In this document: in pieces, positions 26,783-31,197 of the stretch
Position numbering within the stretch: the stretch's first letter is position 1
Layout: every line of letters starts with the position of its first letter
Source of the DNA: Eubacteriales bacterium
GTDB taxonomy: Bacteria; Bacillota; Clostridia; Lachnospirales; Lachnospiraceae
Reading direction: 5' to 3'
Assembly: GCA_030539055.1 (NCBI GenBank)
Contig: JAUNSV010000005.1
Coordinates: 26,574 to 90,573, forward strand
DNA: 64,000 nt
The notes under the pieces: model-generated
The model's database searches: none
Seen by the model: only the letters and a program-made list of their open reading frames with translations
Told to the model about the DNA's origin: nothing
Made by a program: the position numbers and the translations under genes

Positions 26783-27487
26783 TTATTCCACACCCCTTAT
26801 CTCTACTCTTTTTACATAAGGTTTTATTATATTTTTGAACTCTTCCAATTCGCTTTTTTTGAATGAGCTTAAATTTGGTGGTGTTACATTTTCTATTTTT
26901 CTAAAATTTTGTAAAAAATATTTATTTGCACCTTTTATTAAATTAGCTATTGACTCAAAATCTTCTTTTTTATTTAGCGGTTTTACACAAGTAGTTCTAA
27001 ATTCATAATCTATGTTACTATTCATTATATATTGTATGCTTTCTATTATATTATCAAAATTTGTTTTTGTACCACATAAAATTTCATAATTTTCTTTTGA
27101 TGATTTTATATCCATTGCTATCATATCTACTAAATTTTCATTTATAATTTCTTTAATAATTTCTGGCTTTGTTCCATTTGTATCTAGTTTTACTTTAAAA
27201 TTTTTTTGTTTGATTTTTTTTATGAAATTAATTAATTCATTATTTAGTGTAGGTTCTCCACCTGTTATACATACTCCATCTAATTTATTGTGTCTTGTAT
27301 CTAAAAATTGAAAAAATGTATCTTCATCCAAATCATTATTACTTTGTATATTTGTTACAAGCTCCATATTATGACAAAATGGGCATTTAAAATTACATCT
27401 CCTTAAAAATACAGTGCATGCTATATTCTCTGGATAATCAAGTAGTGTAACTTTTTGTATCCCTGCTATTTTCATTATTATCTCCAT
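26783..27487 (-). CDS. nrdG: Anaerobic ribonucleotide reductase activating radical-SAM enzyme
   Basis: 234 aa with CNFKCPFCHN and GGEPTL. Alternative start at ATG 27475. Overlaps the rsmI 3' end. Confidence 0.85.
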   Translation of the reverse strand: MEIIMKIAGIQKVTLLDYPENIACTVFLRRCNFKCPFCHNMELVTNIQSNNDLDEDTFFQFLDTRHNKLDGVCITGGEPTLNNELINFIKKIKQKNFKVKLDTNGTKPEIIKEIINENLVDMIAMDIKSSKENYEILCGTKTNFDNIIESIQYIMNSNIDYEFRTTCVKPLNKKEDFESIANLIKGANKYFLQNFRKIENVTPPNLSSFKKSELEEFKNIIKPYVKRVEIRGVE

Positions 27488-28319
27488 TTATTTGTTTTAC
27501 TTCTTTATACACTATTCTTTTATCAATTTTTCTATCTAGTGATATTTTTTTCATTGCTTCTTTATCACTTAATCCTTGATTCAATAATTCATTGTATTCG
27601 GTTTTAATTGGTTTATTATATATTACTTCTTCTTCATCATTACCTTTTATGACAATAACAAATTCACCTTTTATTTCTTTATTTGAAAAATAATTATATA
27701 TGTATTCTAGACTTCCTCTTATTGTTTCTTCGTGAATTTTCGTCATCTCTCTAGAAATAGATGCAAATCTATTTTTAGAAAATGTATTTATCAAATCTTC
27801 TAGTGTAGATAATAATTTGTGGGGAGAAATATAAAATATCATAGTGTGTTTTTCATTTTTTAATTCTAATAATTTATTTTTTTTGTCCTTTTTGTTGGCA
27901 CTTAAAAAACCAATAAATAAAAATTCATCACTATTTATTCCAGATAATGTAACCGCACATATTAAAGCACTAGCTCCTGGTATGCTTGTAACATTAATCC
28001 TCTCTTTATAGCACATATCTACTAATTCGAATCCAGGATCAGATATAATAGGTGTCCCTGCATCTGTTACTATTGCTACATTTTTATTATCTTTTAATAA
28101 TTTTATAATCTCTATTGCTTTATCGTATTTATTATGCTCATGATAAGATATCATTTTCGTTCTTATATCAAAATGATTAAGAAGTTTGATTGTGTTTCTT
28201 GTATCTTCAGCACAAATAAAATCAACCTCTTTTAATATTCTTATAGCTCTTATAGTTATATCCTCTAAATTGCCTATTGGAGTTGCTACAATATGTAATT
28301 GTCCATAATTATTATTCAT
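27438..28319 (-). CDS. rsmI: 16S rRNA (cytidine1402-2'-O)-methyltransferase
   Basis: 293 aa. LHIVATPIGNLEDITIRAIRILKEVDFICAEDTR. Confidence 0.9.
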   Translation of the reverse strand: MNNNYGQLHIVATPIGNLEDITIRAIRILKEVDFICAEDTRNTIKLLNHFDIRTKMISYHEHNKYDKAIEIIKLLKDNKNVAIVTDAGTPIISDPGFELVDMCYKERINVTSIPGASALICAVTLSGINSDEFLFIGFLSANKKDKKNKLLELKNEKHTMIFYISPHKLLSTLEDLINTFSKNRFASISREMTKIHEETIRGSLEYIYNYFSNKEIKGEFVIVIKGNDEEEVIYNKPIKTEYNELLNQGLSDKEAMKKISLDRKIDKRIVYKEVKQINGDNNENSRDTKSYTT

Positions 28320-28339
28320 ATTTTATTTTTTATAAAAAT

Positions 28340-28361
28340 GCGAAGCAAGTACTTGCTTCGC
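28340..28361 (-). terminator. Terminator after nrdD
   Basis: Palindrome GCGAAGCA-AGTACT-TGCTTCGC, followed on the minus strand by ATTTTTATAAAAAAT. Confidence 0.6.
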
Positions 28362-28387
28362 ATAAAAGCATTATATTTATTTTAATA

Positions 28388-30988
28388 TTATTCAACAAGA
28401 GTTTTTTCTTCTACATATTTTACTATGCTAGAAAGATTTACATACTTATCTGTGTCATTTACCATTAGAGTTGGTGCTTGCATAATACCAAAGTGTGCAC
28501 AATCCATAGGGTTATCCATAGCATCCACTATAGTATAATTAATGCCTGCTTTATCTAATAACTCTTCTGCTCTTCTACAATTAGGGCAAGTTTTTGTAGT
28601 ATATAATTTCAAAACATCCTTTTGAATAGTTTCTCCTATTACTTCCTCTGTGATTGTAACTTTTGGCAAAATATCTTTTAAATTGAGTTGACCATTTATT
28701 ACTTCATCACTTATATTCTCTTTTTTAATTTCTTCATTTGGTTTTTCAATTTCTTTTTCTATTTCATTTGTATTTTGCATTTTATTTTTAAATACATTTG
28801 TTACAGAATCTGTATTGTATATTGTTTGATCTGTATTAACACTTCTTATAGGAGTAGAAATAGCATTATTTATTTCTTCATTGTTTTCTCTTGATTTAAT
28901 ATCACTAAATGAAGAAACGCTTCCATTTATAACATAAGTTTTTCTGTCCTTGAACTCTTGAGCTTTTCCATCGTTCCAATTTTGGAGTGGTCTATAGTAA
29001 CCAGTGATTCTAGAATTAACTTCTGTTTTTTCTCCACACTCTGGGCAATCATAAACTTCCCCTTTTATATATCCATGATTTTTACATATAGAATAAGTTG
29101 GAGATAAAGTATAATATGGTAATTTATAATTATTAGCTATTGTTTTTACAAGTGATGCTGCTGCTTTCCAATCTGGAAGCTTCTCTCCAAGGAATGTATG
29201 GAATACTGTTCCTGATGTGTATAATGTTTGTAATTCATCTTGCACATCTAAAGCTGAAAATACATCCTCTGTATATCCAACAGGTAAGTGTGAAGAATTT
29301 GTATAATAAGGTGTTCCATCCATATTAGCTGTAATAATATCTTTATATCTTTCTTTGTCATGCTTTGCTAATCTATATGATGTTGATTCTGCTGGTGTTG
29401 CTTCTAGGTTGTATAAGTCACCATATTTTTCTTGATAATCTGAAAGTCTGTTTCTCATGTGATTGAGTACTTTTATAGAAAAATTTATTGCTTCTCTGTT
29501 TGTTAAATCCTTTTTTATCCAAGATGCATTTAAACAAGCTTCATTCATACCTACAAGACCTATTGTAGAAAAATGATTGTTGAATGTTCCCAAATATCTT
29601 TTTGTATAAGGATATAAGCCTTTCTCTAAAAAGTTTTCTATTGTTTTTCTTTTTACTCTTAGTGATCTTGCAGATATATCCATAAGTCTATCTAATTCTT
29701 TAAAAAATTCTTCTTCAGTATTTGATGCATAAGCTATGTGTGGCATATTTAATGTTACAACACCTATTGACCCTGTTGATTCTCCACTTCCAAAAAAACC
29801 ACCAGATTTTTTTCTTAATTCTCTTAAATCTAATCTTAATCTGCAACACATTGATCTTACATCAGATGGTTCCATATCTGAATTTACATAATTTGAAAAA
29901 TATGGAATACCATACTTAGCTGCCATTTCAAAAAGTAATTTGTTGTTCTCTGTTTCGCTCCAATCAAACTCTTTTGTTATAGAATATGTAGGTATAGGAT
30001 ATTGAAAGCCTCTACCATTTGCATCACCCTCAAGCATTATTTCAATAAATGCTTTATTAATCATATCCATTTCTTTTTTGCAATCTTGATATTTAAAATC
30101 TACTTCTTTACCACCTACTATACAATTCAATTGTGCTAAATCGTTTGGCACTGTCCAGTCGAGTGTTATATTTGTAAATGGAGATTGAGTACCCCAACGA
30201 GATGGTGTATTAACACCATAAATAAATGATTGAATACATTGTTTTACTTCTTTGTAAGGTAAATTATCTACTTTTACAAAAGGTGCTAAATATGTATCAA
30301 ATGAAGAAAATGCTTGAGCTCCAGCCCATTCATTTTGCATAATTCCAAGGAAGTTGACCATTTGGTTGCAAAGCGTAGAAAGATGATTTGCAGGAGATGA
30401 TGTGATTTTGCCTGGTATTCCACCAAGACCTTCTTTTATTAATTGCTTTAATGACCAACCAGCACAATAACCTGTAAGCATAGATAAATCATGAATATGA
30501 ATTAAAGCATCTTTATGTGCCTCGCAAATTTCTTCATCATACACTTCTGATAACCAATAATTTGCACTTATAACACCTGAATTAGATAAAATAAGCCCAC
30601 CTACAGAATATGTAACTGTAGCATTTTCTTTTACTCTCCAATCATTAACATTAAGATAATTATCTACTACTGATTTATAATTTAATAAAGTTGTAGAAGA
30701 ATTACGAAGTTTTTCATGTTGTCTTCTATACAAAATATATGACTTTGCAACATCTGCATATCCAGCTTGTATTAACACTTCTTCAACAGAATCTTGAATT
30801 TCTTCAACTTTAATTTTACCCTCTTTTACTTTTGTACTAAAATTTGAAGTAGTAAGCATCCCCAAATTTTCAATTATTGATGGATGATACTCTCTATTTA
30901 CAGACTCAAAAGCTTTTCTTATGGCATCGTTAATTTTATTAAGATTAAAATCAACTATTGAACCATTTCTTTTTTCTACAACAAACAT
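28388..30988 (-). CDS. nrdD: Class III (anaerobic) ribonucleoside-triphosphate reductase with a C-terminal linker and a glutaredoxin/NrdH-like domain
   Basis: ORF 28388..31036 trimmed to ATG 30988 (GGGGAG RBS; ATP-cone MFVVEKRNGSIVDF). Finger loop SMCCRL, Zn ribbon CPECGEK, glycyl-radical RITGYYRP. Then ~105 aa of low-complexity sequence, then LYTTKTCPNCRRAEELL (CPNC = 28588..28577). Confidence 0.9.
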   Translation of the reverse strand: MFVVEKRNGSIVDFNLNKINDAIRKAFESVNREYHPSIIENLGMLTTSNFSTKVKEGKIKVEEIQDSVEEVLIQAGYADVAKSYILYRRQHEKLRNSSTTLLNYKSVVDNYLNVNDWRVKENATVTYSVGGLILSNSGVISANYWLSEVYDEEICEAHKDALIHIHDLSMLTGYCAGWSLKQLIKEGLGGIPGKITSSPANHLSTLCNQMVNFLGIMQNEWAGAQAFSSFDTYLAPFVKVDNLPYKEVKQCIQSFIYGVNTPSRWGTQSPFTNITLDWTVPNDLAQLNCIVGGKEVDFKYQDCKKEMDMINKAFIEIMLEGDANGRGFQYPIPTYSITKEFDWSETENNKLLFEMAAKYGIPYFSNYVNSDMEPSDVRSMCCRLRLDLRELRKKSGGFFGSGESTGSIGVVTLNMPHIAYASNTEEEFFKELDRLMDISARSLRVKRKTIENFLEKGLYPYTKRYLGTFNNHFSTIGLVGMNEACLNASWIKKDLTNREAINFSIKVLNHMRNRLSDYQEKYGDLYNLEATPAESTSYRLAKHDKERYKDIITANMDGTPYYTNSSHLPVGYTEDVFSALDVQDELQTLYTSGTVFHTFLGEKLPDWKAAASLVKTIANNYKLPYYTLSPTYSICKNHGYIKGEVYDCPECGEKTEVNSRITGYYRPLQNWNDGKAQEFKDRKTYVINGSVSSFSDIKSRENNEEINNAISTPIRSVNTDQTIYNTDSVTNVFKNKMQNTNEIEKEIEKPNEEIKKENISDEVINGQLNLKDILPKVTITEEVIGETIQKDVLKLYTTKTCPNCRRAEELLDKAGINYTIVDAMDNPMDCAHFGIMQAPTLMVNDTDKYVNLSSIVKYVEEKTLVE

Positions 30989-31080
30989 TTTTTCTCCCCT
31001 TAAAATATTACTTTTATTTGCAAAAAAAAACACCAATTATTTTTATAAAATAACAAGTCTTTTTTTCCTTGTGTTTCAAA

Positions 31081-31154
31081 ATTATACCATATCAAAATAT
31101 TCAAGTCAACTACATATTGATAAATTTTTGGGAATATACCACTATATATTGTGG
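31081..31154 (-). promoter_or_regulatory. nrdD promoter with two NrdR boxes
   Basis: Minus strand TTGACT (31109..31104), 17 nt, TATAAT (31086..31081). Box CCACTATATATTGTGG (31139..31154) matches the acaCwAtATaTwGtgt consensus at 14/16. The weaker box CAACTACATATTGATA (31107..31122) overlaps the -35. Box centres are 32 bp apart. Confidence 0.7.
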
Positions 31155-31197
31155 TTTTTAATTAAAACTTAAATTTTTAGCATTTTTGAACTGTTGT

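Follow-up and report, generated by a model that had tools for sequence, protein, structure and literature searches.

How does a class III ribonucleotide reductase (RNR) obtain its electrons when a small redoxin is built into the enzyme itself? The question is raised by a gene, nrdD::redoxin, on the reverse strand of a 64,000-nucleotide stretch of DNA from a Eubacteriales bacterium of the Lachnospiraceae (contig JAUNSV010000005.1, positions 26,574 to 90,573; this whole stretch is called the window below). An earlier reading of the bare sequence, referred to here as the original prediction, described the product as an NrdD protein carrying a C-terminal glutaredoxin/NrdH-like domain with a CPNC motif, and proposed that such a fusion hard-wires the reductant to the enzyme and implies a non-formate mechanism. 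We will argue that the tethered CPNC domain is likely to be the turnover reductant of a thiol-type class III RNR, recycled by a flavoenzyme of the TrxB family. The stronger version, in which turnover strictly requires the domain as its reductant and makes no use of formate despite the methionine Met380 in the active site, appears to us possible but somewhat doubtful.

Architecture of the fused protein

The gene is part of a single open reading frame (ORF) that spans 28388..31036 on the minus strand and has no internal stops in the ORF listing of the window. Translation probably begins at the ATG at 30988, with a GGGGAG ribosome-binding site seven bases upstream, which gives a protein of 866 residues (P0001). 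The protein consists of four parts, namely an ATP-cone, the NrdD core, a disordered linker and a thioredoxin-fold domain with the CPNC motif (Table 1). Three NrdD models score above their cut-offs: PF13597 with 635.5 bits (cut-off 26.2), NF006126 with 1123 (548) and TIGR02487 with 519 (326). Because PF13597 stops at residue 685, and the 684-position profile of NF006126 (the NCBIfam equivalog "ribonucleoside triphosphate reductase") is exhausted at residue 686, the final 181 residues are extra to a complete NrdD. The original prediction had counted about the same number. The segment RITGYYRPLQNWNDGKAQEFKDRKTY, which contains the glycyl-radical motif, corresponds to residues 660-685 (29011..28934), and the extension thus starts at 28933, where it had been placed before. 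The description of the extension as an N/E/K-rich linker followed by a thioredoxin-fold module also holds, with 102 residues for the former and 79 for the latter, and the CPNC motif was found exactly at 28588..28577 (residues 801-804).

It is important to establish that the fusion is genuine, since an nrdD gene and a small separate redoxin gene could have been joined artificially if a stop had been missed or the frame shifted near 28930. In addition to the uninterrupted frame in the window, the core and the redoxin domain were found in one frame, with the same domain order and lengths of 832-964 residues, in all 12 same-genus genomes among 40 related genomes searched. These are independent assemblies, and the frame is kept despite linkers of 78-178 residues that cannot be aligned with one another. 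A scan of related loci, with one genome per species, gave at least 596 loci; the best 80 of these, on which all counts for related loci below are based, have the same single frame without exception, and they include cultured isolates such as Butyrivibrio sp. FCS014 and Ruminococcus turbiniformis. Nothing was found that speaks for such an artefact. Judged from these comparisons, a missed stop or frameshift at the junction is very unlikely, and we give the artefact practically no weight.

Active site

The active-site residues were assigned by HMMER alignment to the solved NrdD structures of Thermotoga maritima and Prevotella copri. The finger loop is of the double-cysteine type: the C381-C382 pair aligns with C329-C330 of T. 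maritima, while the formate-type enzyme of P. copri has Gly-Cys at this place. Glu529 aligns with the glutamate of the T. maritima sequence FNIEQVPAE (495 in the printed numbering), and the corresponding residue in the P. copri sequence YSILATPAE is a leucine. The thiyl cysteine C382 of the MCCR loop and the RITGYY motif are both invariant in 60 homologues, as are the other residues of the active site (Table 1).

The thiol-dependent subclass NrdD2 is defined by a third cysteine together with an active-site glutamate, the methionine being optional (PMC4493059). By its aligned residues, the window protein fits this definition, with the methionine retained. The MCCR loop is in fact the common form, accounting for 83% of the double-cysteine class III enzymes, and it has been suggested that those which retain the methionine might work with either reductant (Burnim et al., bioRxiv 2022.04.23.489257). 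The active-site residues would thus permit thiol chemistry and, with Met380 retained, may permit that of formate as well. Compared to the MGCR loop and the leucine of P. copri, the second finger-loop cysteine and Glu529 bear out the expectation of a thiol-type active site. The non-formate mechanism, on the other hand, is unproven, as the methionine is kept and pyruvate formate-lyase (PFL) is no rarer in Clostridia genomes with the fusion than in those without it (see below).

One homologue shows a peculiarity at these positions. P0003, a fused NrdD of 1393 residues among the metagenome proteins of ENA, contains two inteins. The first is located exactly before the strand-A cysteine (LSGY|C...HN|CAGWSL) and the second in the finger loop (SM|C...HN|CRLRL), where canonical splicing would leave a single loop cysteine.

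Redoxin domain

In the full-length AlphaFold2 (AF2) model, built with a 60-sequence alignment, residues 790-865 have a predicted local distance difference test (pLDDT) of 92-94, and the 79-residue domain modelled alone reaches 93.6. Foldseek matches it to glutaredoxin and thioredoxin structures with a template modelling (TM) score of about 0.73; at such a size, glutaredoxin (Grx), thioredoxin (Trx) and NrdH are not separable in this way. The residues C801, P802, N803, C804, A838 and P839 are invariant among the 60 homologues. Within the genus, the ratio of nonsynonymous to synonymous polymorphism (pN/pS) is ca 0.32 for the redoxin domain and 0.15 in the core, where synonymous sites are nearly saturated in this comparison; the domain is under purifying selection. 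A third cysteine of the domain, C830 in the sequence NPMDC (28499-28501), is present in 12/12 proteins of the genus and absent from the fused homologues outside it.

The label "glutaredoxin/NrdH-like" stands as far as the CxxC thioredoxin fold and the Pfam family are concerned. The search of the tail that the original prediction had called for passes the threshold of the Pfam Glutaredoxin family PF00462 (35.6 vs 22.9 bits), the match covering only positions 2-39 of the 60 in the profile. The label does not extend to the specific families, as the Grx and NrdH equivalog models give 18-32 bits on the tail against cut-offs of 86-93. Two candidate assignments were rejected on this basis: a classical glutathione (GSH)-dependent glutaredoxin (TIGR02181, 27.8 bits vs a cut-off of 90, and a CPNC motif, not CPYC) and an NrdH orthologue (TIGR02194, 17.9 bits vs 85.75).

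The two assignments were also weighed for the electron path, with a tail reduced by a low-molecular-weight thiol and not by TrxB. The Pfam result speaks for such a tail, and GSH-binding glutaredoxins are found among the top Foldseek matches. However, the motif and the equivalog scores just given argue against it, and the glutaredoxins of the PDB align only with the N-terminal half of the tail (residues ca 5-47), whereas chains of PDO, MJ0307, NrdH and Trx align through the cis-proline region. Furthermore, no Glu-Cys ligase (PF04262) was found in the genome, which is 99% complete, and trxB-like genes adjoin the fused gene in relatives. Taken together, we regard a classical glutaredoxin or an NrdH orthologue as highly improbable.

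Electron supply

The genome of the window has a size of 1.51 Mb and a GC content of 27%. At its 99% completeness, it contains no class I or II RNR (PF02867), and the fused enzyme is thus its sole RNR. This enzyme is the organism's only route to deoxyribonucleoside triphosphates, which makes the source of its electrons a central matter for growth. Neither a PFL-like enzyme nor the Glu-Cys ligase was found in the same genome, which thus shows no glutathione and no evident means of making formate internally. No further Grx-family domain is present. The genome encodes one thioredoxin (WCGPC) and one canonical TrxB, the latter on another contig (365 bits, with the motifs CATCD and HRRDELRA); an additional trxB-like gene of the operon type was sought in the genome, and none was found beyond this one.

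The situation in the relatives is different. Directly behind nrdD::redoxin, 63 of the 80 related loci have a trxB-like gene (for example L021:5098-6030 and L058:5441-6394), which starts within a few bases of the stop and often overlaps the fused gene, with nrdG upstream. The adjacent reductases have CA[V/I/L]CD instead of CATCD in 61 of the 63 cases. As many of them are devoid of the HRRxxxR motif for NADPH, a different electron donor may serve them. Two of the genomes (L085 and L030) have no TrxB besides the adjacent gene, and L021 has a canonical TrxB and a diverged adjacent copy.

On the basis of the homology to NrdD2, the precedent of Facklamia ignava NrdB (see below) and the linkage to trxB, from which we infer every electron-transfer step, the following cycle can be proposed. 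NrdG would install the radical at Gly663, and Cys382 would initiate catalysis. The two electrons would be provided by Cys175 and Cys381, leaving a disulfide between them, by homology with the Neisseria bacilliformis enzyme. The CPNC dithiol of the tail, of either the same or the partner protomer, would then re-reduce this disulfide, and the oxidised redoxin would be recycled by a flavoenzyme of the thioredoxin-reductase family. In the organism of the window, this last step would be carried out by the single canonical NADPH-type TrxB, directly or through the single thioredoxin. As to the hard-wired reductant of the original prediction, we find it to be the most economical reading.

A number of observations weigh against this cycle. 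With Met380 retained in the finger loop, the enzyme has the elements of formate chemistry as well (Burnim 2022). There is no trxB beside the fused gene in the window, nor in most of its genus. No biochemistry of any fused NrdD was found in the literature searched. The fused cores all share 65% identity or more, and the co-occurrence of the tail with the MCCR/Glu residues may therefore go back to a single inherited event and not be the outcome of repeated selection. The active site of class III RNRs is buried, and any redoxin would have to reach it there. Finally, in a sample of 299 Clostridia genomes, PFL of the TIGR01255 type is encoded in 31 of the 50 genomes with the fusion and in 148 of the 249 without it (62% vs 59%; odds ratio 1.1, p = 0.76). 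Because the presence of PFL is independent of the fusion, a lack of formate is not its general driver. The absence of PFL was therefore given up as an argument on the fusion in general, and is retained as a statement on the present genome alone.

With no anticorrelation to PFL, another role for the tail stays viable, namely that of a maintenance or activation factor. It would keep the cysteines of the Zn-ribbon or the active site reduced for radical generation by NrdG, or might repair the enzyme after oxidative episodes, while the electrons for turnover would come from formate by the Met380/Cys175 route. That a majority of the genomes with fused NrdD encode PFL too is in favor of this possibility, and thioredoxin has been reported as a requirement for the activation of the Escherichia coli NrdD (Padovani et al. 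2001). Against it, the only RNR of the present organism would have no obvious internal formate, as no PFL-like enzyme is encoded, and the residues for disulfide chemistry, Glu529 and Cys381, are invariant. In addition, a dedicated and translationally coupled trxB in most relatives suggests a stoichiometric flux rather than occasional repair. We consider the maintenance role unlikely, although less so than a classical glutaredoxin or NrdH tail.

The proposal that the tethered domain delivers the turnover electrons has some wider implications. The fused redoxin, together with the TrxB-type reductase that usually follows it, constitutes the strongest genomic hint that MCCR/Glu enzymes use protein thiols. 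If the stronger version with formate unused is correct, the fused clade would assign the reductant to the MCCR-plus-Glu enzymes, which are the majority of the double-cysteine class III RNRs, and a folded redoxin would be able to act directly on the plugged active site of an RNR of the glycyl-radical type. The fused protein would also be a convenient, self-contained construct for probing a thiol-driven class III RNR.

Distribution of the fusion

The original prediction did not recognize the architecture as a standard one. This could not be upheld, since the fusion is the rule in a large clade of NrdD from gut and rumen Clostridia, and one example had already been tabulated (PMC6187632, Table S1). 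A search with the tail only gave 64 protein clusters, virtually all with the architecture NRDD+Glutaredoxin and 780-830 residues, from sources that include Holdemania filiformis, Butyrivibrio, Eubacterium and Lachnospiraceae. Among the full-length homologues, the best 120 are fused without exception and have 783-950 residues, the nearest named ones being proteins from Lachnospiraceae metagenome-assembled genomes (MAGs). The MCCR loop, the NLEATPAE motif and a CP[N/K/R]C tail are found together in 80/80 of the best related loci. These loci are labelled as Oscillospiraceae, Acutalibacteraceae, Lachnospiraceae, Christensenellaceae, Erysipelotrichaceae, Bacilli and some Lentisphaeria, the labels of the MAGs being unverified.

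To place these numbers in the class as a whole, 300 evenly sampled Clostridia genomes from 178 genera were surveyed. The redoxin domain is present in 55 of the genomes and in 36 of the genera, i.e. in about one genome in six. In 50 of the 54 genomes other than that of the window it lies within an ORF of 595-868 residues, that is, in fused form; in Clostridia, the domain is thus found almost only as the tail of NrdD. A search of RefSeq had previously listed Grx fusions to NrdA, NrdB, NrdD and NrdJ (Rozman Grinberg et al. 2018, PMC6187632). The fusion is common in gut Clostridia and previously listed, and is neither unusual nor particular to the window.

Some MAGs with fused NrdDs of 66-78% identity to the window protein bear the label Lentisphaeria or Victivallaceae, and one that of Acidiphilium (L044, L049, L052, L089, L091 and L080; labels unverified), which is due to horizontal transfer or else to mis-binning. 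A separate redoxin gene that might have preceded the fusion was sought within ca 6 kb of the unfused, 51%-identical NrdDs of L110 and L111, and none was found there.

The linker is the part that varies most. Its content of N, E and K is 37%, compared to 22% in the core, and residues 698-789 have a pLDDT of 28-38 in the full-length model, i.e. they are predicted to be disordered. In the clade of the window (L002-L012; P0066-P0105) its length is 78-185 residues, vs a median of 29 in the wider family. Most members of the genus share a helix directly after the core (SAKLAATRIEQMGENLFK), and most also have a short motif, FNDVFKNN...NFYKD, within the otherwise hypervariable linker. The helix and the motif might represent a docking element instead of a passive tether. 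The window protein has degenerate forms of the two, with NVFKNK as the remnant of the motif.

Gene neighborhood and regulation

Downstream of the fused gene lie rsmI and the gene for the activase, nrdG (Table 1), and as much as 50 nt (27438-27487) is shared by the reading frames of these two. Among the same-genus genomes, the order nrdD-rsmI-nrdG is matched in only one (G004), and most of the fused genes of the same genus and family have neither trxB nor nrdG as neighbors. Directly downstream of nrdG there is an ORF of 266 residues (25892-26692, minus strand), in which the N-terminus is flavodoxin-like and two ferredoxin motifs of the 4Fe-4S type are present. Its Pfam matches are weak and near threshold, and its product is a candidate for supplying electrons to the cluster of NrdG.

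Upstream of the putative promoter there is a palindrome that resembles the consensus of the NrdR box. A second, degenerate NrdR-like box at ca 31106-31121 overlaps the -35 element of the promoter. Since NrdR-like boxes are located by the promoter and a gene for NrdR is encoded in the genome (G000 C16), the sole RNR is probably repressed by NrdR.

Table 1. Positions of the features discussed in the text, numbered from the first nucleotide of the window.
Feature	Positions	Strand	Basis and remarks
nrdD::redoxin coding sequence	28388..30988	-	866 residues and a TAA stop
ATP-cone, allosteric on/off domain, residues 3-92	30713..30982	-	PF03477, E 5.6e-20
Class III RNR catalytic core and glycyl-radical domain, residues 121-685	28934..30628	-	PF13597; NF006126
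Cys175, strand-A active-site cysteine	30464..30466	-	Equivalent to C125 of T. maritima and C171 of P. copri; invariant in 60 homologues
Finger loop M380-C381-C382-R383, double-cysteine type	29840..29851	-	SCCR in T. maritima, MGCR in P. copri; invariant in the 60-sequence alignment
Glu529 in NLEATPAE, putative proton source of thiol-type NrdD	29402..29404	-	Invariant in 60 homologues
Zn-ribbon ligands C635, H638, C648 and C651	29036..29086	-	Read from the sequence; invariant in the 60-sequence alignment
Gly663, glycyl-radical site in RITGYY	29000..29002	-	Read from the sequence; invariant in 60 homologues
Linker, ca 102 residues, N/E/K/I-rich, predicted disordered, residues 686-787	28628..28933	-	AF2
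Thioredoxin-fold redoxin domain, beta-alpha-beta-alpha-beta-beta-alpha, residues 788-866	28391..28627	-	PF00462, E 1e-8; AF2
CPNC redox motif, C801/C804	28577..28588	-	Invariant in both alignments, of 18 and of 60 sequences
Pro839, thioredoxin-fold cis-proline in QAPT	28472..28474	-	A-P invariant; A-P-T invariant in the A1 alignment
Intrinsic-terminator-like hairpin and T-run directly 3' of the stop	28338..28363	-	11-bp stem with 5 GC pairs
rsmI, 16S rRNA C1402 2'-O-methyltransferase, between nrdD and nrdG	27438..28319	-	TIGR00096, 265 bits
nrdG, radical-SAM activase	26783..27487	-	TIGR02495, 210 bits vs a cut-off of 131
Sigma-70-like promoter (TTGACT, 17 nt spacer, TG-TATAAT)	31081..31109	-	Consensus match only, 11/12, best of the region
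NrdR-box-like palindrome ACCACAATATATAGTGGT, upstream of the promoter	31138..31155	.	Resemblance to the consensus

Comparison with known systems

The closest known case is the protein WP_082039398.1 of Lachnospiraceae bacterium TWA4, listed as Glutaredoxin:NrdD of the RNRdb group NrdDd (PMC6187632, Table S1). It is of the same kind, an NrdD joined to a Grx-family domain, and also comes from the Lachnospiraceae. The entry is a single row of the table, with the order of the domains unconfirmed; the linker of the window protein, at 102 residues compared to the family median of 29, is unusually long.

With the NrdD2 enzymes of N. bacilliformis and T. maritima (PDB 4COI/4U3E), the window protein shares the double-cysteine loop, the strand-A cysteine and the glutamate, and in those enzymes a protein dithiol is the presumed reductant. 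They differ in that they use a free thioredoxin, have an SCCR loop without the methionine and belong to the subclass NrdDh, whereas here the redoxin is tethered and the loop is MCCR. It should also be noted that their relationship to the window protein is distant, the T. maritima chain matching its core with E 8e-35 and 123 bits.

The NrdD3 of Methanosarcina barkeri (Wei et al. 2015, as cited in PMC5704485) is likewise a class III RNR to which a small redoxin and a reductase are genetically coupled. In that system, the redoxin is encoded by a separate, adjacent NrdH-like gene, the active-site glutamate is missing, and the reductase is a ferredoxin:disulfide reductase, dependent on ferredoxin. 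Unlike in M. barkeri, the redoxin of the window is fused to the enzyme, the glutamate is present, and the reductase that adjoins the gene in the relatives belongs to the TrxB family.

The precedent for a fused redoxin is the NrdB of F. ignava, where a redoxin domain is attached to an RNR component as in the window protein, and the fused Grx has been demonstrated experimentally to work as the reductant of the RNR (PMC6187632). That enzyme is of class I, however, with an N-terminal Grx on the radical-generating subunit, and this Grx is GSH-dependent and acts on the C-terminal cysteine pair of NrdA.

Finally, the tail resembles the C-terminal CxxC "swinging tail" of the class I and II RNRs, which is a similar flexible appendage that brings a dithiol to the active site. 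The difference is that the swinging tail, a short peptide, needs a free redoxin for its own reduction, whereas the appendage in the present case is a whole folded redoxin domain.

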